The notes beneath the pieces were generated by a model that made no database searches, was not told where the DNA came from, and saw only the letters and a program-made list of their open reading frames with translations. The position numbers were made by a program, and so were the translations under genes. From an uncultured Clostridia bacterium (GTDB lineage: Bacteria > Bacillota > Clostridia > Christensenellales > UBA1242), in contig CALVTR010000001.1 of NCBI GenBank assembly GCA_944362965.1, positions 90,529-154,528 on the forward strand: DNA of 64,000 nt. Direction: 5' to 3'. Shown one piece after another: positions 2,444-43,388 of the stretch; position 1 is the first letter of the stretch; every line of letters begins with the position of its first letter.

Positions 2444-3577
2444 TTATTTCATTTTTTTGAGGTAATTTGTATATTTTGTGTAAGAGTTGTCTCCAATATC
2501 TTTTGCAAGCTCTTGAAGTTTTGCCTTTGTTTGTTTGTCAAGGCTCTTAGGAGTTTCAGCCTTAACTGTTACATAAAGGTCACCATAGGCTTCTCTATTG
2601 AGCTCTTTCACACCTTTATTTTTTAGTTTAAAAACTGTTCCGCTGGCAGTAAGCTCTGGAATATTTAGAGAATACAAACCTTCTAGCGTTGGAATATCTA
2701 CCTTTCCACCAAGAAGGGTTGTTGTGAAAGGCAAATATAAATCAATATAAAGGTCACTTCCTTTTCTCACAAGTATCTTATGAGGGCTTACTGATACTTT
2801 GATATTAAGGTCACCATTCACTCCATCTCGCGTTGGAGCATTGCCTTCCCCACGCATTCTTAAGGTTTGACCATTGTCAATTCCTGCAGGGAACTTTACT
2901 TTTATTGTCTTGTTTGTTCTTATAGTTCCCTTACCATTACATACCGAACATTTTTCTTTGATGATTTTTCCTGTCCCATTACATTTAGGGCAGCCTGCTT
3001 CTCGTATTGTAGTGCTAAAGAGTGTGTTTTGTTGATATCTTACTCTGCCCGTGCCGTTACATTCAGGACATACTGAAAACTCTCTGCCGTCTTTAGCGCC
3101 TGTGCCTTTGCAAGACGAACATTTGTCAAGTTTTCCTATGGTGATATTTTTCTCACAGCCAAAGCATGCTTCTTCAAAGGTAAGATTGATTGAAGTGTTG
3201 ATATCTTGACCACGCTCTCTTGTTCTGCTTTCAGCTCTACCGCTTCCGCCAAATGCAGAAAAGATGTCGGAGAAGATATCAGAAAAACCACCGCCGCCAC
3301 CGAAGAAGTCACCAAAACCACCACCGCTGCTTGCTCCGCCTCCAGCTCCAAAAGGATTGCCGTCAGCCGAGCCGAATTGGTCATAGTTCGCTCTCTTCTT
3401 TGCGTCGCCGAGCACGCTATAAGCTTCATTTATCTCTTTAAATTTTTCTGCTGCTTCTGGTGTTTTGTTAAGGTCTGGGTGATATTTCTTTGCAAGTCTG
3501 CGATATGCCGACTTGATTTCATCTTCACTAGCACTTTTATCAACACCAAGCACTGAATAATAATCTTTATTTGCCAT
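2444..3577 (-). CDS. dnaJ: molecular chaperone DnaJ
   Basis: J-domain with HPD (KKYHPDLN), a G/F-rich linker and four CxxCxGxG zinc-finger repeats. Confidence 0.97.
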
Positions 3578-8475: not shown

Positions 8476-10395
8476 TTATACAATCGCAGTCCAATCTCGT
8501 TTATAATAAGTAGAACTTCCTAAATACTCTAAAGCATTCACAGGAATTGACGAAGCTTGAACAGTTGTTGAAGCGTAACCATTGCCTGACACCCTCCAAT
8601 TACATGTTGTATTTAGTGTTATCGTTTCAAGCCCTGTTACACTTTGGAAAGCATAGTAGCCTATAAATGTAACGCTTTCTGGGATTACTAGAGAAGTTAC
8701 AGCAAATCCACAATAATAAAAGGCAAGTCTACCTATACCTGTCACATTTGAAGATAGTTCTATCGTGATATTATCAAGCCCTGCGAAAGCACCAATTTCA
8801 ATATACGTGATTATACTATAAAGATAGCTTCCTTCGGTTATTGTTGTATTATCTGTTGCACGTATTAAAGCCATATCTTCAAGTCTAATTAAGCAGTTCA
8901 GTTCATTACCATCACTATCTCGACTTGTAAAGTATTGATTTTCAGGGTCTACATATATAGTTTTGATATTTTGGCACCCTGAAAATGCATATTCACTAGT
9001 AATATCATTAACATTTTTCCCTATATGGATGTTGCTAATAGATATGTTATTATAGTATTTATCATGACTATCTTCTTCAAGATATGATCTAAATAAATTT
9101 GGTATAGTTTCAACACTATCACCAAAAATGAAATTTGTTATAGTAGAGCCACTAAAAGTAGCAATGGTTGTTCCATCATACAAATAATTAAGACTCGCAT
9201 TTTTTGCATTATAATAAATTGTGTTTACACTTAAATCACTAAAAGCCTTGTGACCTATCCTTTCTACATTTGCACCTATAGTCAATTCTTCAAGATTGTC
9301 GCAAGCACAGAAAGCATATCCATCTATATCTGTCACGCTATCTGGAATTGTTATATTTGTTAAACTACTGCAATAATAGAAAGCATAATTACCTATACTT
9401 GTCACACTGTCTGGAATTACTATACTTGTTAAACTATCGCAACCAGAGAAAGCACGATCTCCTATACTTGTCACACTAAAAGTATAAGGTGATACTTCTG
9501 AGTTATAGGTTTCTGTTGGTATTTTTAATCCAATCACACTTGTATCACAGCCTGTAACACTTGCTGTGCCATCTGTGCCATCTTCGTTATAAGAATATGT
9601 TAAATAATTATCTGGCTCTTCAAATATTGCATAATAGGTTGCGGCAGAAGTATCGTCATATGTAAATTCATAATCAAAACTTGTTGATACAAGCTCTCCT
9701 GTTTCACTACCTGCTCTCCAACCTAAGAAAGCTGCTCCGTCAACGTCTGTAAAGTTGGCTGAAAGTGCAACTTGCTGCCCTATTTCTACTACTCCACCAC
9801 CTGTTGCTGTGCCTAGTGTTTCATTAGTCGATATCGCTGTCACTGATAGTGCTTCTTTTATTGTGATAACTATTTCTCCTAAATCTATGCTGTCAGAGTT
9901 TGGTGCCATGATTGTCAGCTCAAGTGTGCCGTCTGCTTGCGTAGTTGCAGGGTCAAATTCTTTAAAATCGTCACCATCTGAATCGGTTAAGTCATTCACA
10001 CCAATAATTCCGCTATGCCTTTCTGACACGCCGTCATTTGTAAGGGAGCTCAAGTCTACGTCCGCTATTTGCCAATAACTATCCGTTGCATTGATTATAT
10101 CAAAATACAAGGTAAAAGAGCCGTGACCATTCTCTTCTGTGTTTAAAGACGTTAAATCCATATTAAAGTTTCCGTTTATGTAACCCGGTGTAAAACTATC
10201 AACAACTATCTCTTCTCCGCCCGCTTCTTGATACCTGACTTCTTTAACATACAAGCTCTTGTCTGGAACTACAAAACTTAAACTTCCTTGCATGCTTATC
10301 TGTTGCTGCGTCGCTGCATATACCCCAAGTATCAATACACCAAGCATAAGCATAAATAACGAAATACATGATATTAGTTTTAATTTTAATGACAT
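8476..10395 (-). CDS. secreted/surface BspA-type leucine-rich-repeat protein (locus 1)
   Basis: The likely start is the MSLKLKL Met at 10395, preceded by AAGGAGAG; the 26 codons upstream run through the leader and are rejected. N-terminal K-rich and hydrophobic signal. The C-terminal half has ~23-aa repeats (SLTSIVIPDSVTSIGNYAFYYC). Confidence 0.85.
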   Translation of the reverse strand: MSLKLKLISCISLFMLMLGVLILGVYAATQQQISMQGSLSFVVPDKSLYVKEVRYQEAGGEEIVVDSFTPGYINGNFNMDLTSLNTEENGHGSFTLYFDIINATDSYWQIADVDLSSLTNDGVSERHSGIIGVNDLTDSDGDDFKEFDPATTQADGTLELTIMAPNSDSIDLGEIVITIKEALSVTAISTNETLGTATGGGVVEIGQQVALSANFTDVDGAAFLGWRAGSETGELVSTSFDYEFTYDDTSAATYYAIFEEPDNYLTYSYNEDGTDGTASVTGCDTSVIGLKIPTETYNSEVSPYTFSVTSIGDRAFSGCDSLTSIVIPDSVTSIGNYAFYYCSSLTNITIPDSVTDIDGYAFCACDNLEELTIGANVERIGHKAFSDLSVNTIYYNAKNASLNYLYDGTTIATFSGSTITNFIFGDSVETIPNLFRSYLEEDSHDKYYNNISISNIHIGKNVNDITSEYAFSGCQNIKTIYVDPENQYFTSRDSDGNELNCLIRLEDMALIRATDNTTITEGSYLYSIITYIEIGAFAGLDNITIELSSNVTGIGRLAFYYCGFAVTSLVIPESVTFIGYYAFQSVTGLETITLNTTCNWRVSGNGYASTTVQASSIPVNALEYLGSSTYYKRDWTAIV

Positions 10396-10435
10396 AACAC
10401 ACTCTCCTTTTTTTGCGAGCAAGCTTCGCCTAAGC

Positions 10436-10539
10436 GAGAAGGCATAAAGGCTGATAAGCCTTTCAGAAGGCAAAAGCTTTTGCCTTGTTGTGCATTTTGG
10501 AAAAATGCACGTGCCTTCTCACACTCGCGGCGAAGCCGC
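10436..10539 (-). promoter_or_regulatory. structured 5' leader of locus 1 (four-way junction plus GC hairpin)
   Basis: Outer stem GAGAAGGCA/TGCCTTCTC (10436-10444 / 10512-10520) encloses three hairpins at 10446-10463, 10467-10486 and 10490-10510. A GCGGC-GAA-GCCGC hairpin follows at 10527-10539. Confidence 0.55.
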
Positions 10540-10581
10540 TCGCTCGCGATAGCCGCTTGACGCGTCTATCTTTATGCTATT

Positions 10582-10609: not shown

Positions 10610-10707
10610 GCAAATTTAACAAATTTTTTAAATTTTTTTGAAAAATTTTGTGCCTTAGGCACTTTTTATCGTGTGACTTGTCTATAATGCCGAGTTTATC
10701 TGTTCCA

Positions 10708-10826
10708 AGAGAGCGGTGATAAAGTTTATTTTTGAAACAACCTAATCTGACAATCGTCAAACATTTGGTTTGCGGACAGTGATGCAAACTAAGTTTGCCG
10801 GATAGTCGTCGAACATTTGGTTCGGT
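10708..10826 (-). repeat. copy of the hairpin-repeat family, inverted relative to the 21.4-21.8 kb array
   Basis: 10774-10821 matches the reverse complement of 21494-21541 at about 45/48 nt. Contains two AAAC/GAAC-CAAAT-GTTT/GTTC-GACG hairpin units. Confidence 0.7.
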
Positions 10827-10874
10827 GGCTTAGCCACTTTTTATCGACAAGTGTATCTATAACAAAGCATTTTT

Positions 10875-19979: not shown

Positions 19980-21196
19980 TTATTCAACAATAGCCCGCCA
20001 ATATCTATTGTAATAAGTATCTGTTAAATAAGTCAATGCATTTGTTTGAACTTCTGAAGCCGTTGACGTTGCTATAATTGATGAATCTGAGAAAGAACTG
20101 CTACTTGCTATTTCCCAGTTATATGGCGTATTGAATGTTATTGCTGTGAGTCTACCGCAACCATAGAAAGCTTCCCTACCTATACTTGTCACACTGTCTG
20201 GGATTGTTATACTTGTTAAACTACTGCAACCTCGGAAAGCACCTTCAAGTATACTTGTCACTCCTTCTGGGATTGTTATACTTGTTAAACTAGAGCAATT
20301 TTGGAAAGTAAAACTACCTATACTTGTCACTCCTTCTGGAATTACTATACTTGTTAAACTAGAGCAATTTTGGAAAGTAAAACTACCTATACTTGTCACT
20401 CCTTCTGGAATTACTATACTTGTTAAACTATCGCAACCAGAGAAAGCACGATCACACTAAATTCGTAAGGTGAACGAGAAGTTCTATATATTGTTGACGG
20501 GGTTACTAATTCTCCTGTTGCACTTGTATTACAATCTGATACTCTTGCTGTGCCTGGTGAAGTTGTATAACTATATTTTAAATTACTATTTGCTGTTTCA
20601 AATATTGCATAATAGGTTGTTGGTGAATTCTCTGTGAAGGTGAAATTATAGTCTGTAAGAGTTGATACAAGCTCTAGTATAGGAGATCGTGCTTTCTCTG
20701 GTTGCGATAGTTTAACAAGTATAGTAATTCCAGAAGGAGTGACAAGTATAGGGTCAAATTCTTTAAAGCCGTCTTCATCTGCGTCGGTTAGGTCATTCAC
20801 GCCAATTATCCCGCCATGTCTTTCTGACACACCATCATTTGCAAGAGCTCCTAAATCTACACTTTCTATTGACCACAGAATATCCGTTGCATTGATTATA
20901 TCAAAATACAAGATAAAAGAACCGTGACCATTCTCTTCTGTCTCTAAAGACGTTAAGTCCATATTAAAGTTTCCATTTATGTAACCCGGTGTGAAGCTAT
21001 CAACAACAATCTCTTCACCACCCGCTTCTTGATACCTGACTTCTTTAACAAACAAGCTTCTATCAGGCACGACAAAGCTTAAATTGCCTTGTATGCTTAT
21101 ATGCTGTTGCGTCGCTGCATATACCCCAAGTATCAACGCCCCTAGCATAAGCATAAATAATGAAATTGTGGATATCAATTTTACTTTTAATGACAT
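19980..21196 (-). pseudogene. rearranged BspA-type LRR surface protein paralog (locus 2)
   Basis: The N-terminal 150 aa are near-identical to locus 1. After KEFDP, about 85 codons are replaced by an antisense LRR unit. A 13-nt deletion at the FSV/DRAFSG junction causes a frameshift and stop at 20423. The LRR C-terminus continues in ORF 19980-20399. Confidence 0.8.
20386..20752. repeat. perfect 68-bp inverted repeat flanking a 231-bp segment
   Basis: 20386-20453 is the exact reverse complement of 20685-20752, checked base by base. Both arms encode one LRR unit (DRAFSGCDSLTSIVIPEGVTSIG). Confidence 0.9.
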
Positions 21197-21354
21197 AAAT
21201 CTCTCCTTAACGCAAAAATTTTATTTTTATTTTGTTTAATCACTGCTGTTTTTATGCAAATTTCGACCTTACTTGCATATCTTAGCCACATTTTAGCATT
21301 TTTGCAATCCCTTTGTCTCAAGGGTGACGGCACGATGCCGTCAAATCACGACCC

Positions 21355-21780
21355 GAATTTTCGAACCATATGTTCGACGATTGTTCGATTAAGAGTGTCT
21401 AAGTTTTAAACTACATCTCCGCTCTCTAAGCCTAACGCTTGGCGGTTATACGGCAGAGTGAGAATAAGAGATAAGCTATGTCTCCGCTCTTAAGCCAAAT
21501 GTTTGACGGCTGTCCGGCAAACTTAGTTTGCATCACTGTCCGATAAAGTGAATATAAGAAACAAACTTTATCTCCGCTCTCTAAGCCTAACGCTTGGCGA
21601 CTATCCGGCAGAGTAAGTTGAAAAAATAAACTTTGTCGCCGCTCTCAAACCTTACGTTTGACGATCGTCCGCGAGCCAGATGCTCGGCGTTTGTCCGGCA
21701 GAGTGACATAAAAGAATAGTCTTTATTCCCGCTCTCTTTAACCATATGTTCGACGGCTGTCTATGTGAGCGAGCTTTGTC
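21355..21780 (+). repeat. tandem array with alternating 65/90-bp units
   Basis: Unit heads T(C/T)(T/G/C)CCGCTCT at 21416, 21481, 21571, 21636 and 21726, giving spacings of 65, 90, 65 and 90. Each unit carries a 4-5 bp hairpin with a 5-nt loop followed by G(G/A)CG. Confidence 0.8.
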
Positions 21781-21788
21781 GCAGATAT

Positions 21789-21874
21789 GAGAAGGCATAA
21801 AGGCTGACAAGCCTTTTGGAAGGCAAAAAGTTTTTGCCTTCTTGTGCATTTTGAAAAAATGCACATGCCTTCTC
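21789..21874 (-). promoter_or_regulatory. locus 2 copy of the four-way-junction leader
   Basis: About 90% identical to 10436-10520, with the same outer stem GAGAAGGCA/TGCCTTCTC and three hairpins. Here about 590 bp of repeats separate it from the gene. Confidence 0.55.
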
Positions 21875-21928
21875 ACACTCGCGGCGAAGCCGCTCGCGAT
21901 GGACATAGTATGTCCATCTTTTGCTATT

Positions 21929-22112: not shown

Positions 22113-22230
22113 TTTCTCCGCCGCAGGCAAGCGAATGAGGGATTTTTATTAAAAAATCACAATAGGCAAAATATGTTTTGCCTATAAAAACTCTAGTGAG
22201 TTTTTCATTCGCTTGCCTGCGGCGGAGAAA
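22113..22230. other. nested palindrome D: 26-bp outer stem plus three hairpins
   Basis: TTTCTCCGCCGCAGGCAAGCGAATGA (22113-22138) pairs perfectly with 22205-22230. Inner hairpins lie at 22141-22158, 22162-22185 and 22187-22204. Confidence 0.7.
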
Positions 22231-26000: not shown

Positions 26001-26119
26001 GGGCGGCGACAAAATTTTAAAACAAAAGTTTTAAAATTTAAAAAGAGAAACTTTTTATCGCTCCGAGATAAAAAGTTTCTCTTTTTTGCTCGCTTTTTCA
26101 AAGCGAGCGGTCGCCGCCC
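26001..26119. other. nested palindrome A: 10-bp GC outer stem plus three perfect hairpins
   Basis: GGGCGGCGAC (26001-26010) pairs with GTCGCCGCCC (26110-26119). Inner stems of 12, 16 and 9 bp lie at 26012-26039, 26044-26082 and 26088-26108. Confidence 0.7.
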
Positions 26120-26304: not shown

Positions 26305-27444
26305 CTACACGCTCTCCGGATCGCCGCCAACTACTTCATCACCAATATAGGCATAGAGCTTATTTATAAGAGACTTTCTCTTTATTCTTGGCTCAAGAAT
26401 AGTAAGTAATTTTACAATTTTATCACCGTTTGCTATAACATCTTCTGTCCTTGCATATTCTAAAATGCCTTCAAGAAGCTCATCAATACTGATATTTCTT
26501 ACATATAAATTCTTTTCTTTATCGCCACGCGTTAAAATCTCAAGCACATTGCAGATATATTCAACATCCCCGCTCTCAGCAAGCTTGCTTGTGGCTTCCA
26601 CTCTACAATATCCAGTTGAGAGAGCAAATTGCATGCAGGCTCTTGGATTCTTGCATTTTTGCATAAATTTTTCAGCAATAACCTGTGAATACACCGGAGT
26701 ATAAGCATTTGCATACCTAATAACCTTATAAGGCTCCATTTCACTTACAATTTCTGCAATGGCGTTGATAAGAAATTTGCGACTTGCTCCCTTGATAGCA
26801 GGTCCATTATTTCCTATATAATCACAAAGTTTATGCAGGTATTCAACATTTCCTATCTCAACAAGCGCATCAATAATCCTATCTAATTTTGTTCTTCCAA
26901 GTCTTGCAAGGTGGTATATTGCTCGCGGGTTTTTGCTTTTAAGTATTGCACTTTCAAGTTTTATAAAATCATCACCATCTACTTGAGAAGCAACTTCAAG
27001 CATAAGCATTGGGTCATTTTTTTGAATAACCGAATCTATATATAAATCTTTGCTTATATTCTTTATATTTGCGGTAAAGCGTGCAAGTGCATTTGTATCG
27101 TTTGATTTTAGCACAATTTGTCCAATAATTTCTTTTTCTTCTTCAAAAAGACACTCTTGATTTTTTTCGGTATACTCAACTATACTATTTGGAGAATAAA
27201 CATAACTTAATAGACTAACAGGTATATGAAGATTATAAAACTTAACGCTTGGCAAATTTGCAAAAGCTTTAGCGTTAGATTGGCGAGCCACCTTTTGAAC
27301 TATTCCATCAGTCTCTTGTGGGCGAATATAAGCTTCAATATCTTTAAGCACATAAGTTATCTCGGCATCATTCCATGCGCGCGTTATAATCCCCACTCTA
27401 TTTACTCTGTCTGTCAATTTGCTTAATAATTCTTTAAATTCCAT
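26305..27444 (-). CDS. hypothetical alpha-helical repeat protein
   Basis: The start is taken at MEFKELL; the ORF extends to 27507. Internal repeats KNPRA...(A/L) and G(N/D)VEY(L/I). No catalytic motif recognised. Confidence 0.55.
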   Translation of the reverse strand: MEFKELLSKLTDRVNRVGIITRAWNDAEITYVLKDIEAYIRPQETDGIVQKVARQSNAKAFANLPSVKFYNLHIPVSLLSYVYSPNSIVEYTEKNQECLFEEEKEIIGQIVLKSNDTNALARFTANIKNISKDLYIDSVIQKNDPMLMLEVASQVDGDDFIKLESAILKSKNPRAIYHLARLGRTKLDRIIDALVEIGNVEYLHKLCDYIGNNGPAIKGASRKFLINAIAEIVSEMEPYKVIRYANAYTPVYSQVIAEKFMQKCKNPRACMQFALSTGYCRVEATSKLAESGDVEYICNVLEILTRGDKEKNLYVRNISIDELLEGILEYARTEDVIANGDKIVKLLTILEPRIKRKSLINKLYAYIGDEVVGGDPESV

Positions 27445-27570
27445 ATTTTTTTCTCCCTTTGTAATATTTCTATAAGTATATTTTACTACAATATTAAAAA
27501 TAGTCAATACTAAAATTGTAATTTTTTATCATTGACATGACCGGCTTTTTATGTTATAACAAACTGGTAG

Positions 27571-28269
27571 GTGAAAATCATGGAAGAAGCTTTTTTAAAA
27601 CTTAAAAAAATTGATGAATTTATTGAGAAAAAATATAGAATTTCAGATAGCCGCGACTTTAAAATTATCAAACTTTATGCGGACGCTGTCTATGATTTTT
27701 TAGTCCACTATTGCACCTATGATAGTAGTTCTGCTAGCATTGTTAAAGCAAACAACAACGACACCGAAATATATAATAGACTTTTAAACTTAAAAAACTG
27801 CGTCTTGACAGGCAAAGGAGTGTGTGGACAGTTTGCTCAATTTTTTACCACTCTTGTGGCAAATAGAATTTATAAGGTATGTGGAAAAGCAAGATGCGGC
27901 ATTCTTAACGCAAAGATATACTTTACAGACAAAAATGGAAATAACAAAATAGACCCGCATAGCTTAAACTTTCTTTCCTTTGACGGCAGGCTTTATCTAT
28001 ATGACATTTCAATGGGCTTAAAACAAGCTGTAAAAGCACAAGAGCCTAACGCTTTCTGCGGAATTGACAGTGAGCTCTATCAAACTCGCCTTGCAAAGTT
28101 TGACAATAATTCCACTATAGAGTCAACAAATATGCTATATATTGAGCCTAAGCCAATGAAAGCAGTGTTTGAACTTTTCTATCCACATAAAAGTTTTTAT
28201 ATCAAAAAGACGGAAGATTATGAAGGCGTTAAAGCCCCAGATATCTTCACATCTCCAGAAAATTATTAA
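27571..28269 (+). CDS. transglutaminase-like cysteine peptidase-fold protein
   Basis: GKGVCGQFAQFF (the G-x-C-x-x-FA core), then DPHS and LYDIS about 16 aa apart, fit a Cys-His-Asp triad. The ATG at 27580 is a likelier start than the GTG at 27571. Confidence 0.55.
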   Translation: MKIMEEAFLKLKKIDEFIEKKYRISDSRDFKIIKLYADAVYDFLVHYCTYDSSSASIVKANNNDTEIYNRLLNLKNCVLTGKGVCGQFAQFFTTLVANRIYKVCGKARCGILNAKIYFTDKNGNNKIDPHSLNFLSFDGRLYLYDISMGLKQAVKAQEPNAFCGIDSELYQTRLAKFDNNSTIESTNMLYIEPKPMKAVFELFYPHKSFYIKKTEDYEGVKAPDIFTSPENY

Positions 28270-34474: not shown

Positions 34475-34546
34475 ACTAGAATTTTGAACGGCAATTTACT
34501 GATTAAAAAAAAGGATTTAAAAATTAAAATTAAAAATAAAATTAGG

Positions 34547-34662
34547 TTTTTGAGTTTAAAGGTTTTAAATTTGAGTTTAAAAATTATAAATTTTGAGTTT
34601 AAAAGTGTAAAATTGATTTCATAAAATTAAAATTTTGAGTTTAAAAGTAAAATTGATTTCAT
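34547..34662 (+). repeat. four direct TTTGAGTTTAAA(A) repeats, two extended to ~30 nt
   Basis: Copies at 34547, 34569, 34591 and 34633. The last two continue as AAAGT(G)TAAAATTGATTTCAT. They are embedded in an AT-only spacer. Confidence 0.75.
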
Positions 34663-34717
34663 TATTATTTAAAAATTAAAAATAAAAATTTAAGGAGTTT
34701 TTGTCTAAAAATAAAAC

Positions 34718-39880: not shown

Positions 39881-40861
39881 CTAAGCCACTTCACCTATAT
39901 CTATAGTGACATTTTTTGTTATTTTACAAGTCAATATACTTTCATCGTCTGCTGTCGATGTTTCTATCTCATCATTTTCAACAGCGTGAGCAGTGATGTC
40001 GTAATCTACTTCGTCTGATGGCGTGACAATAGCCGTTGCATTTGTTGATGAAGCCGTGCTTGGGGATGAAGAAGCTTGCACATATGAAAGATATCCAATA
40101 ATCGCAGTGCCATTTGCATAAACAGTATATGAGTGAACATATCTACGTGGCTCTACGGAACTAGAATTTTCTTCCTGAGTTGAAACTTCATCTTGGAAAG
40201 GATTAGAAGCAAGTGTGAGATATAAATTAGAGCTTACATAAACTTCTGCACTGCCTTTTTCTTCAATAGTATAATACATTGAACTTCCTAAATCAGTTTT
40301 GAAACAAATCTCAATATCGCTCCTATAATTATTTATAGTAACCTTATACATAGTCGTTTCTGACAATTCTATGAAAATATTATTTAAGCTTATTGTTGTT
40401 GAGCTTGTTGCTTGAATATTAATATATATTGTGCCAGAAACCCCATCATATGTTGCTACTTCAGAAATTGGAACACCATCACCAGCTATTGTTCCGCTGA
40501 CGGTTAATGTTGCATTTGATATGTTAGATTGACTGCTTGCACTGTATGCTGTTGTGGTTGTATTGACAACATCTATTGCAACAGTTACTTTCCCACTATC
40601 TGTTAAAACTGTGCCGATATCAAGATCAAAGCTGTCTTGAACAAAGCCTGGAAAGAAATTTCCCATAGTCTGACCATCTGTCATGTCGGTGGATATCCTT
40701 ATGTCTTTTACATACAACGTTGAACCTTCTATATTAAATTGCACATTTCCTTTTAAATTTATGGTTATGTTACCAGTTACAGCCAAAACTCCCACCAAAA
40801 GCATACTAAATACTAACACAAAAGCTGAAATCATAGATACTAATTTTACTTTTAAACTCAT
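39881..40861 (-). CDS. secreted surface protein paralog without LRRs (locus 3)
   Basis: The N-terminal MSLKVKLVSMISAFVLVFSMLLVGVLAVTG and the following beta-rich domain (LYVKDIRIS...FFPGFV) are homologous to loci 1 and 2. The C-terminal part is Ser/Thr-rich. Confidence 0.8.
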   Translation of the reverse strand: MSLKVKLVSMISAFVLVFSMLLVGVLAVTGNITINLKGNVQFNIEGSTLYVKDIRISTDMTDGQTMGNFFPGFVQDSFDLDIGTVLTDSGKVTVAIDVVNTTTTAYSASSQSNISNATLTVSGTIAGDGVPISEVATYDGVSGTIYINIQATSSTTISLNNIFIELSETTMYKVTINNYRSDIEICFKTDLGSSMYYTIEEKGSAEVYVSSNLYLTLASNPFQDEVSTQEENSSSVEPRRYVHSYTVYANGTAIIGYLSYVQASSSPSTASSTNATAIVTPSDEVDYDITAHAVENDEIETSTADDESILTCKITKNVTIDIGEVA

Positions 40862-40926
40862 CTTTTCACTCCTTTTCTTTTTTATTTTTAGTTAAAGCTT
40901 TGTGAACATAGCTACGTGCTTTGCCC

Positions 40927-41032
40927 GTGCCTTAAGAAAACGTGCGAATTTTTAATTCGCACAGGCTGCAAATATTTGCAGCCTAAGAAACTCATTCGAG
41001 TTTCTGTTTTCTTAAGGCGCGGCCAAAGCCGC
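40927..41032 (-). promoter_or_regulatory. structured 5' leader of locus 3 (four-way junction plus GC hairpin)
   Basis: A 15-bp outer stem (40927-40941 / 41006-41020, one T-G pair) encloses hairpins at 40942-40962, 40963-40984 and 40986-41005, with 0-1 nt linkers. A GCGGC-CAAA-GCCGC hairpin lies at 41019-41032. Confidence 0.6.
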
Positions 41033-41076
41033 AGCCTATCCATTAAGAATAGAATATTATATCTTAATTCTCTTCT

Positions 41077-41103
41077 ATTATACCCCCCCGCAACCCACGT
41101 CAA
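41077..41103 (-). promoter_or_regulatory. promoter P3 with a G7 tract in the spacer
   Basis: Minus strand reads TTGACG (41098-41103), TGGGTTGC, G7 (41083-41089), then TATAAT (41077-41082), giving a 15-nt spacer. The upstream ~35 nt are identical to P1. Confidence 0.65.
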
Positions 41104-41349
41104 GCAAATTTAACAAATTTTTAAAAATTTTTTAAATTTTTTTATATTTTTTTATATTTTTTATTATTTTTATTATTTTTATTATTTGTATTATTAAAAA
41201 ATATTATACTCGATTTATATATCAAAAATCCAAATTAAACAAACATGGGTGCAAATAAAAAATATTACAAAGACATTTCATTGTGCTTTCTGTGTTTAAA
41301 AAAACCCAAAATTCTTGCTTTCTATAAACTTTTATACGCAAAGTTGACA

Positions 41350-41378: not shown

Positions 41379-43388
41379 TTAATTATCATTAAGAACAATG
41401 GCATTTCTTCTATCAATGTCGTAGAAGATTTTATCAACCTCAAGTTTTTTAGAAATTCCCATAGGTTCAGGAGCTGATGACTTAACCATACATTTAGTTG
41501 CATAGAACGGTGTCATGGTGTCCATCATGATTTCCTTTCTGAATATCTTTGCAACAACCGTCCATTGTTTAAGCTGTCTTAATTGTTGTTTATCAAGCAG
41601 CGGTCTGCGTGTTCGCTGAACAGAAGTCGAGATATTTTCTCCAGAATCTGATTCTTTTGTATTACGCGACCTATTCTCTTCTTCGTGGAATACCGTTGTT
41701 TCACCGCAGGCTTCTGAGAAGGCTTGAATAGTTGACGGGTCTTCTGAGCCTAAGAACACTTCCATCTGGAAGTTACCACGAATGTTTTGAGCTTCATCAG
41801 CACCATACTTAATATCAAGTTGTTTATATGATTGAAGAACTATTTCAAAGAACACGTTTCTTGAACGAGCAACTGTAACCATAGTTCCAAACTTAGGAAC
41901 AGGTGGCATATTACCAAACTCATCAAGAATGAAATATACAGGACGTTTAAGTTTTCCTGTCTTGCCATTCTTAGGATTTACTGTTCTGTTTGCGACATCG
42001 ACAAGCACCTTATAGAGCTGACTTATACAAAGCACGCCTAGTGGGTGACGTTCAGTTTTGTGGTCTGGAATACGAATGAAGAATGCTGTTGGACGTTCTG
42101 GGATATCTTCAAAATCAATATCCGTTCCGCTTGTCATATAGAAGATACCTTCGTCGCCGAGCATATTACCAATAGAAGAGCCAAGTGTTGAAATAAATGA
42201 CCTTTGTGTAACAGGGCTGGCAAGACAAACTGTTGACATAAGGTCATGCACGGTGCTAAGTCTTGGGTCTCTGCCTTCGCTATATTTTGTCAAAGTTTTA
42301 AGAGCATTTTCTCTATCACCCGCAGGATCACGGCGCATACAAATCTTATATAGATTATAGAAATTAAATTTGTCAAGAGTCATGCCCAGTCTCGGGTCGC
42401 GGCTATCTTCAAGCATACCTTCCATAATACCAAGAATAAAGTCACGACAACCATCAGGCCACATCTTATCTTTGGCATTAGGATCATCTGGAATAAGAGA
42501 AAGCGAAATGTTTTTTAAGTTAGATTTTGCTTCATCTTCAAGTTGAACACGTCTTGCTTCAAGTTCCTGTTGAAGGATGTCGTTATTTGGGAAAGCTTTT
42601 CCTTCAAAACCAAACCAAGTGTCGCCATAGGTTGCTCCACCAATTTGATCTGGCGAAAATCTTTTATAGCCCATCTCTTCAGGGGTTGCATTGCTTATCT
42701 TCTTTACTTCTTTTGCAAGATTTCCTGCTCTTTCATAAGTTTTATAAGCAATTTCCATAGGATTCCAACGTGATGACGCATAAGGATTTTCAAGGTTTAG
42801 AACGATAATATTATAGCCTTCTTCTCTTAAAGCGTTTGCATTATCGGCGTAAAGTTCGCCCTTAGGGTCAGTCATAACAAGGCTAGGCTTTTGCCCAGTG
42901 TGAGCAAGTATTCTAATTGTTGGATTTGCGAAAATCTGTGTCTTACCAGTACCAGTAGTACCTAAAACCAATGCGTGAGTTTCAGGTTTCATATTGACTT
43001 CATAATGCCCGCCAACTTCCTTATTTCTAAAAACAAAGCCTGTTTTCTTAAGCGATGGAAGATTGTTCCATGTTGAAAAGATAAGGTCTGGGTCAGTGCG
43101 TAATCTTTCAGTTGTGATAAATTTAGAGTCAAAGTTGATATCAGTCTTTTCGCCTTCAGCCGTAGTTCCAACATTAGAGCCCATACCTTTTTTCTCTTTT
43201 GATAAGAGCGCTGTGCATAGTCCTGCAATAACGCCTATCGCAAGCATAGCAAGTGATATAACATTGACAAGTGCATCCGTTATCTCTCTTGTGCCTTCTT
43301 GGGTAAAATAAGAAATTGCAACACCAATTCCATAACCAAGAATGCCAAATACCAACATTAAAATGACACTAAGCTTGAATTTCTTCAT
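41379..43388 (-). CDS. VirD4/TraG-type type IV coupling protein (membrane-anchored P-loop ATPase)
   Basis: Two N-terminal TM helices, Walker A LGTTGTGKTQ, the DPKGEL motif and Walker B YFILDEFGNM. Confidence 0.85.
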   Translation of the reverse strand: MKKFKLSVILMLVFGILGYGIGVAISYFTQEGTREITDALVNVISLAMLAIGVIAGLCTALLSKEKKGMGSNVGTTAEGEKTDINFDSKFITTERLRTDPDLIFSTWNNLPSLKKTGFVFRNKEVGGHYEVNMKPETHALVLGTTGTGKTQIFANPTIRILAHTGQKPSLVMTDPKGELYADNANALREEGYNIIVLNLENPYASSRWNPMEIAYKTYERAGNLAKEVKKISNATPEEMGYKRFSPDQIGGATYGDTWFGFEGKAFPNNDILQQELEARRVQLEDEAKSNLKNISLSLIPDDPNAKDKMWPDGCRDFILGIMEGMLEDSRDPRLGMTLDKFNFYNLYKICMRRDPAGDRENALKTLTKYSEGRDPRLSTVHDLMSTVCLASPVTQRSFISTLGSSIGNMLGDEGIFYMTSGTDIDFEDIPERPTAFFIRIPDHKTERHPLGVLCISQLYKVLVDVANRTVNPKNGKTGKLKRPVYFILDEFGNMPPVPKFGTMVTVARSRNVFFEIVLQSYKQLDIKYGADEAQNIRGNFQMEVFLGSEDPSTIQAFSEACGETTVFHEEENRSRNTKESDSGENISTSVQRTRRPLLDKQQLRQLKQWTVVAKIFRKEIMMDTMTPFYATKCMVKSSAPEPMGISKKLEVDKIFYDIDRRNAIVLNDN

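Follow-up and report, generated by a model that had tools for sequence, protein, structure and literature searches.

In several bacteria, homopolymeric tracts lie between the −35 and −10 hexamers of surface-protein promoters, as exemplified by the poly-A tracts of Mycoplasma hyorhinis vlp, the poly-G tract of Neisseria meningitidis porA, the poly-C tract of opc in the same species and the poly-C tract of Bordetella pertussis fim. Interspersed structured repeats form another class of elements, which includes REP (repetitive extragenic palindromic) sequences and their mosaics (BIMEs, bacterial interspersed mosaic elements), ERIC/IRU (enterobacterial repetitive intergenic consensus/intergenic repeat unit) elements, pneumococcal BOX and RUP (repeat unit of pneumococcus), Neisseria Correia elements, Bacillus cereus bcr repeats and other MITEs (miniature inverted-repeat transposable elements). 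Here, we analyze a 64,000-nt stretch of an uncultured Clostridia bacterium (contig CALVTR010000001.1 of assembly GCA_944362965.1; the whole stretch is called the window), in particular locus 3 (39881–41103), where a gene for a secreted or surface protein is preceded by a poly-G promoter and by a leader that folds into a four-way junction. A first-pass annotation, made from the sequence of the window, had merged promoter and junction into one regulatory unit. We separate the two: the G tract is the candidate switch, and the junction is probably a nested palindromic repeat of the REP/BIME or MITE kind, sitting at the apex of a leader hairpin.

Locus 3 consists of the following features, where X, Y and Z designate the three hairpins of the junction:

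41104..41200, minus strand: A/T-rich, UP-element-like upstream tract, partly common to the promoters of loci 1 and 2 (P1 and P2)
41098..41103, minus strand: −35 hexamer TTGACG, separated from the −10 hexamer by 15 nt in the window
41083..41089, minus strand: G7 tract inside the promoter spacer, of different length in other assemblies with otherwise identical DNA
41077..41082, minus strand: −10 hexamer TATAAT
41042..41068, minus strand: 5′-proximal leader hairpin ATTAAGA/TCTTAAT with loop TATAATATTCTAT, kept in the L026 leader with one compensatory pair
40904..41041, minus strand: extended imperfect outer stem of the leader, with the module at its apex
40929..41018, minus strand: core X-Y-Z module, a 13-bp perfect outer stem (40929–40941/41006–41018) around the three hairpins
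40986..41005, minus strand: hairpin X, AGAAACTC
40963..40984, minus strand: hairpin Y, AGGCTGCAAAT
40942..40962, minus strand: hairpin Z, GTGCGAATT
40869..40874, minus strand: Shine-Dalgarno (SD) sequence AAGGAG, unpaired in the predicted fold
39881..40861, minus strand: 326-aa open reading frame (ORF) with start MSLKVKLVSMISAF, encoding a secreted/surface all-beta protein with signal peptide MSLKVKL and no leucine-rich repeats (LRRs)

Runs of seven or more Gs are confined in the window to the promoters of locus 3 and its two paralogs (five overlapping matches against 0.78 expected), and at all three loci the tract lies inside the −35/−10 spacer. At locus 3, the spacer is formed by tgggttgc followed by G7, 15 nt in total, and the promoter (P3) is identical to P1 over 33 nt upstream of the tract. 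The first-pass annotation had reported this shared promoter with a G7 tract, a perfect TATAAT and about 35 nt of identity to P1, all of which holds with the identity shortened to 33 nt, and it had rightly taken the tract to differ among the promoters. The tract also varies among assemblies: locus 3 carries G7 in the window and L002, G9 in L001 and G8AG in L037, resulting in spacers of 15, 17 and 18 nt, respectively. In other assemblies that encode exactly the locus 3 protein, the whole upstream region matches the window except for this tract, and at locus 2 a G8 tract in the window corresponds to GCGGGGG in L052, again in otherwise identical DNA. Among 31 family loci from six metagenome-assembled genomes (MAGs) of uncultured Clostridia, about 14 have the layout TTGACx, 7–9 nt, G7–G10, TAnAnT. 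The tract is interrupted in L005 (which keeps a 17-nt spacer) and in L032, and the remaining family loci have ordinary promoters. The exact pattern has no match in species-representative genomes and none in viral contigs. The broken G run of the L005 promoter (3005–3035; TGGGTTGGGGTGGGTGG), with its fixed 17-nt spacer, is also G-quadruplex-like in composition.

The anatomy of the tract, together with its length polymorphism, indicates promoter-spacer phase variation, with a likely on/off control of locus 3 as far as sequence can tell. Transcription would start at a sigma-70-type promoter whose spacer holds a slippage-prone G run. G7 sets a 15-nt spacer that is predicted to be weak or OFF, G9 would restore the optimal 17 nt, and slippage within the run could thereby give ON/OFF or graded control. 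As in the described spacer systems, the homopolymer sits between the −35 and −10 hexamers of surface-protein genes and varies in length among isolates; as in vlp, a multigene family has a common promoter, leader and signal peptide, and the mature proteins diverge. Unlike those systems, the host is an uncultured spore-forming Clostridia lineage, the leaders carry palindromic modules, and the switching is read from sequence. The regulatory novelty of the locus resides in this promoter family, which extends contingency promoters in the style of Mycoplasma and Neisseria to BspA-LRR and other surface proteins of spore-forming gut-type Clostridia, and bears on surface variation in these uncultured bacteria.

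The 215-nt leader of locus 3 has a minimum free energy (MFE) of −91.6 kcal/mol (z = −11.85; none of 200 shuffles as good), of which the core alone accounts for −52 kcal/mol in the predicted fold, reaching −85 to −92 kcal/mol with the extended stem. It is built from a small 5′ hairpin (41042–41068), a long imperfect stem and an apical 13-bp stem with three hairpins, and the junction starts about 35–60 nt from the predicted 5′ end. The first-pass annotation had described this four-way junction with three hairpins and linkers of 0–1 nt, which is what we recover, but its 15-bp outer stem measures 13 perfect base pairs (inside 24-nt arms that are 92% complementary), and the hairpin stems it gave as 9, 10 and 8 bp are 8 bp (loop of 4), 11 bp (loop of 0, effectively 9 + 4) and 9 bp (loop of 3). 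The GCGGC…GCCGC hairpin that it had found at both loci 1 and 3 is present as a possible alternative fold of the left arm of the extended stem (41019–41032), where GCGGCTTTGGCCGC is similar to GCGGCTTCGCCGC of locus 1. Downstream of the structure come GTTCACAAAGC at locus 3 and AAAAAAAGGAG at locus 1; neither contains a U-tract, so a role as terminator or attenuator was rejected. Searches of Rfam, at gathering as well as permissive thresholds, return no family for the module and only spurious long-hairpin matches (E ~0.1). Riboswitch-type traits are absent, as position and strand vary among copies and the loops of 0–4 nt vary in sequence. Resemblances to attC sites, tRNA-like structures and retrons were considered and dropped, since defining motifs or neighboring genes are lacking.

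The junction is not specific to leaders; it is one instance of a structured repeat found across the lineage, and not a regulatory leader made for this gene. We searched for copies by scanning for adjacent perfect hairpins inside an outer stem and with a covariance model (R1) built from an alignment of 14 copies; W1, W2, L009, L012, L020, L011, L050:3875 and L054:385 were outside its training set. R1 finds about 27 copies in 287 kb, five of them in the window: the locus 3 copy (W3) listed above and the following four:

10434..10522, plus strand: module in the locus 1 leader (W1), with X-Y-Z antisense to the gene
21787..21876, plus strand: module in the locus 2 leader (W2), paralogous to the locus 1 copy and likewise antisense to the gene
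22113..22230, minus strand: module C, with a 26-bp perfect outer stem, about 170 nt upstream of promoter P2 and outside the leader
26001..26119, plus strand: module flanked by an accessory gene and mraY, with no relation to the family genes

The 14 aligned copies, including W3, correspond hairpin by hairpin, with the consensus A[A/C/G]AAACTC for X, AGGC or AGCC for Y and GT[G/A]nATTTT for Z. The earlier claim that the junction stems of locus 3 cannot be aligned with those of locus 1 thus fails, as W3 belongs to a multi-copy module family. The same architecture, an outer stem around three hairpins with an inner span of 64–67 nt, also recurs with different sequence, and outer stems range from 9 to 31 bp, so that terminal inverted repeats are present. 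Copies are found in leaders (W1, W2, W3, L005/6 and L009) and upstream of promoters (module C, L021/22, L020 and L012:1645); of the latter, the L021 copy separates rpmH from a divergently oriented family gene and precedes the promoters of both, and the L020 copy is downstream of a peptidase gene. Settings of other kinds also occur: the L003 copy separates the convergent rplS and HTH (helix-turn-helix) genes; an L012 copy precedes rubrerythrin; and the L050 copy is inside an operon, between nrdD and nrdG. Upstream of poly-G promoters, modules and GAGCGG-type units form mosaics in both orientations. Module C is one member of a multi-copy subfamily characterized by the outer stem GGCAAGCGAATG. 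In a metagenome scan, this stem retrieved eight low-GC contigs of one assembly (ERZ1090861) at about 24x coverage, all with the same core but in at least three different flank contexts. One of these contigs is identical to the window's locus 2 region, and many copies of the core therefore exist in one species. High-GC metagenome contigs (L042, L043, L045, L046, L049 and L055–L059; GC 0.58–0.67) were also considered as relatives of the module and judged unrelated, being 15-nt tandem arrays (CTGGCAAGCGAATGA) followed by inverted copies; these arrays carry a 12-mer of the module outer stem, probably by coincidence.

The junction is present in some relatives and absent from others. The first-pass annotation had held that family members lacking such a leader would speak against selection on the structure, and many do lack one. 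Six leaders behind poly-G promoters carry the junction, while L008, L010, L012, L025, L029 and L032 combine a poly-G promoter with a leader devoid of it, and some family members have ordinary promoters and short leaders. The apexes of homologous leader hairpins are occupied by the three-hairpin module (W1, L005 and W3), by a single hairpin (L026), by other repeat units (L008 and L010) or by nothing (L012). In L003, veg and sipL match the window exactly (0 differences in 570 nt), and the place of the locus 3 promoter, leader and 5′ coding sequence (CDS) is taken by a divergent HTH gene together with an operator-type promoter whose upstream region measures 83 nt; this strain thus runs the same gene with no junction leader. 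Upstream of mraY, the module is missing from L062 and L063 (MraY 78–84% identical), and L060 (87%) has a different hairpin cluster.

Both strands of the module fold equally well, with the same MFE in sense and antisense. Across the 14 copies, 541 of 547 pairs are Watson-Crick and 6 (~1%) are G·U, a share far below the usual level in functional RNAs. The test for structure-preserving substitutions that had been proposed for these leaders comes out positive, as 12 pairs are changed on both sides and remain paired, and 93% of cells are paired compared to 31–55% when partners are slid (none of 500 shuffles as high). Some copies do contain uncompensated stem changes, which had been named in advance as an observation that would count against selection on the structure. 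With neither strand folding better than the other and hardly any G·U pairs, the covariation can be explained by maintenance of a DNA-level palindrome as well as by selection on RNA. Of the earlier conclusion that the structure itself is under selection, the recurring architecture and the kept pairing thus stand, and a leader-specific RNA topology selected for gene regulation does not. This is also a general warning: compensatory changes in perfect palindromes are no proof of RNA selection.

Orientation provides a further argument. R1 scores W3 at 62.5 bits in the direction of the gene and at 27 in the reverse direction, while loci 1 and 2 reach 52 and 49 bits antisense against 33 and 35 sense, which independently bears out the suggestion that the module at locus 3 is flipped relative to loci 1 and 2; in L009, the best score is likewise on the strand opposite to the gene. 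In L054, the inner segment is inverted relative to the paralogous copies in L050, L051, L048 and L052, with conserved flanks. Each locus keeps a single orientation in all assemblies compared (five for locus 3, three for locus 1 and two for locus 2), and flipping is therefore rare and not a fast switch.

The reading of the junction as a repeat follows from these properties: it is multi-copy, intergenic, found in both orientations with no fixed placement around promoters, and present or absent among relatives. Each copy is about 90–120 bp long and has an outer inverted repeat around X, Y and Z, three short palindromes; frequently it is nested at the tip of a further hairpin, as in the predicted fold of locus 3. 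Its perfect two-strand complementarity, compensatory double changes and inner flip/flop fit palindrome dynamics at the DNA level; candidate processes are template switches or recombination events involving the two arms, and the transposition or insertion of modules at the tips of hairpins. The locus 3 copy is expected to be co-transcribed, and its RNA would form a very stable junction with a free SD and no U-tract. By analogy with REP elements and Firmicutes 5′ stabilizer hairpins, the most probable effect of this RNA is generic, namely a nuclease-resistant block that may stabilize the downstream message or insulate the transcript, rather than a gene-specific sensor.

Compared to REP/BIME, ERIC, BOX, RUP, Correia and bcr elements, the modules are similarly multi-copy, intergenic, strongly palindromic, oriented either way and co-transcribed into untranslated regions; they also occur in mosaics with further repeat types, and some relatives have them where others do not. 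They differ in being a nested four-way junction of near-constant size with subfamily-specific outer stems and an inner flip/flop, a design that is unusual among REP/BIME, ERIC and MITE repeats, and in that no target-site duplication, RAYT (REP-associated tyrosine transposase) or other transposase is identified for them. The two orders of the inner palindromes relative to the outer stem resemble the flip/flop of the inverted terminal repeats of AAV (adeno-associated virus) and other parvoviruses, and the hairpin-loop inversions of chloroplast non-coding DNA. Unlike the viral repeats, module copies lie at internal chromosomal sites rather than at replicon termini and show no sign of hairpin-primed replication. 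With Firmicutes 5′ stabilizers (ermC, the aprE leader and the cryIIIA STAB-SD), the locus 3 leader has in common a stable structure near the 5′ end, a long leader and a free SD. Unlike in those cases, the junction begins about 35–60 nt in, with a separate hairpin (41042–41068) nearer the 5′ end, and a stabilizing role would here be an analogy.

Several observations weigh against this interpretation. Around copies sharing one core, no direct target-site duplications are found, the flanks being inverted repeats or unrelated; among the loci compared, no empty site with the palindromic flanks and no module is seen within a species; and no transposase was found, nor a RAYT (Y1 HUH) gene among the window ORFs scanned. 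The mobility of the module is therefore read from its distribution alone. The palindromic insertion flanks are left unexplained by the repeat reading, and so are two further features. Of the five window copies, four are clustered upstream of the three family genes, at distances within 1 kb, which hints at some functional or mechanistic connection, although two of the copies are paralogous duplicates. The six G·U pairs are all located on the X-Y-Z strand and hint weakly at a constraint specific to that strand. As for the switch, MAG assemblies can mis-call homopolymer lengths.

Several competing explanations were weighed. A dedicated cis-regulatory RNA leader, in which the junction is selected to control stability, translation or antitermination of the family mRNAs, would account for the very stable fold, for pairing that survives double substitutions, for the six junction leaders behind poly-G promoters, for the confinement of G·U pairs to one strand and for the enrichment of window copies near family genes. 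We nevertheless consider it unlikely, as some copies precede promoters, separate convergent genes or belong to unrelated operons, and leader copies point in both orientations. Many poly-G leaders do without the junction, the L003 gene is driven by another promoter with no junction at all, and the module has no conserved unpaired nucleotides, no terminator, no SD sequestration and no Rfam match. If the element acts instead as DNA, cruciforms or a dimeric or architectural protein bound to it could buffer supercoiling and tune twist-sensitive promoters with non-optimal spacers, much as gyrase and IHF (integration host factor) bind BIMEs. Perfect complementarity of both strands with very short loops is what cruciform extrusion needs, such an action would not depend on position or orientation within ~300 bp of promoters, and 15–16-nt spacers are frequent in the family. 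Copies inside an operon and at 3′ ends are distant from promoters, however, and the proposal is based on analogy alone, with no known binding protein, which leaves it similarly doubtful.

Two further explanations take the module as a site of DNA rearrangement. As recombination hot spots, the modules and the conserved promoter and signal-peptide blocks would promote exchange of 5′ cassettes and cargo, diversifying the surface repertoire. The L003 swap of promoter, leader and 5′ CDS between identical flanks fits this, as do the restriction of variation to the CDS in L037 and L038, the mosaic upstream regions with several repeat types in both orientations and the varying copy number of the leader repeat array among strains; the breakpoints of the L003 swap are not mapped to the module, however, and modules are present at unrelated loci too, so that we give the hot spot little chance. 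A programmed invertible switch, in which a recombinase flips the inner segment of 64–66 bp between the outer inverted repeats and changes expression, could draw on the perfect inverted repeats of 26–31 bp and on the occurrence of both inner orientations, among paralogous sites with conserved flanks as well as between loci 1/2 and locus 3. It is highly improbable in light of the single orientation per locus (five, three and two assemblies of loci 3, 1 and 2), an inner segment that is free of promoter-like hexamers and too small for easy synapsis by a recombinase, a promoter that lies outside the module, and loci beside which no recombinase gene is seen.

Besides the preferred reading of a REP/BIME- or MITE-like repeat, we speculate on a broader version that we hold to be a minority possibility: the X-Y-Z modules may be an undescribed, structure-defined class of elements that home to hairpin apexes, flip their inner segment, are kept by hairpin-templated correction, and settle preferentially in the control regions of a phase-variable family of surface proteins, where they contribute to reshuffling or tuning. 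In a related scenario, the junction would be functional as RNA or DNA and be recognized by an unknown protein. The modules offer a handle on the origin and spread of structured repeats in low-GC genomes and, if mobile or protein-bound, would amount to a new repeat class.

The gene behind the locus 3 leader is a member of a secreted/surface multigene family with variable C-terminal cargo in this uncultured, spore-forming lineage of Clostridia. The three window paralogs and 49 database relatives have in common the signal peptide and a ~170-aa N-terminal domain, both present in the locus 3 protein, and diverge in their C-terminal parts. The locus 1 paralog (8476–10395) has a BspA-type LRR_5 match (1.6e-44, Pfam), while the locus 3 protein has neither LRRs nor any other significant Pfam or NCBIfam match. 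A TasA/SipW-type signal for loci 2 and 3 is not supported, because NCBIfam returns no match for either. The AlphaFold model of the locus 3 protein (predicted local distance difference test score, pLDDT, 75) is all-beta with two disordered linkers, and a search of the PDB with it yields no significant neighbor. The first-pass annotation was right about the missing LRRs and about a Ser/Thr-rich stretch, but the latter (QASSSPSTASSTNAT, around residues 265–285) is a low-confidence linker ahead of the last beta domain and not the extreme C-terminus.

Genes neighboring locus 3 encode TraG-like, Veg, SipL, SigG, HrcA and SpoVE proteins. A lone gene for a VirD4/TraG-type coupling protein (41379–43388, minus strand) lies directly upstream of locus 3, amid core sporulation and cell-wall genes; in L003, rplS takes this place. 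Strains with more than 1 kb of identical flanks (L037 and L038) have 13–18 nt differences, only in the locus 3 CDS (13 between L037 and the window), and the strain pattern of the locus suggests that this gene alone undergoes diversification or cassette exchange. The 100% leader identity in L037 and L038 was rejected as evidence of constraint, as all non-coding flanks are equally identical. At locus 1, L040 and L041 (99% identical strains) have the apex of the first leader hairpin (window 10545–10570) swapped as a block, from CGC..GCG to CACC..GGTG with pairing intact, and their middle junction hairpin gains an uncompensated A·C mismatch. The window has two accessory genes, at 26305–27507 (no Pfam match) and 27571–28269 (plus strand), along with the module copy, in the interval from the Mur ligase gene to mraY; in L062 and L063, the intergenic region is short and lacks both the accessory genes and the module.

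A second repeat family, with units of ~65–90 nt (GAGAGCGGAGATAAAG...CTGCCGGA..CGCCAAGCGTTAGGCTTA), forms an array at 21350–21780 (minus strand) in the 741-nt leader of locus 2, which is 155 nt longer in L052 (same species); inverted copies are found at 10700–10830, upstream of P1, and further copies in L008, L010, L033, L050 and L051. A different hairpin repeat family (CCCCACAAATC...GATTTGTGGGG and similar) occupies comparable intergenic or leader positions in related species, at L060:2000–2210 and in the L017 leader. Between a small ORF and a ypeB-like gene, at 34545–34665 (plus strand), there are non-coding fragments in tandem that are similar to the beginning of the family coding sequences (TTGAGTTTAAAAGTAAAATTGATTTCA, with two mismatches to the locus 3 start). 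The locus 2 gene (19980–21196, minus strand) is broken in the window genome into a 257-aa ORF and a separate 139-aa LRR_5 fragment. Compared to its intact counterpart in L052, which encodes 616 aa, it has internal deletions, among them changes in the number of LRR copies and a loss of 13 nt near 20455.

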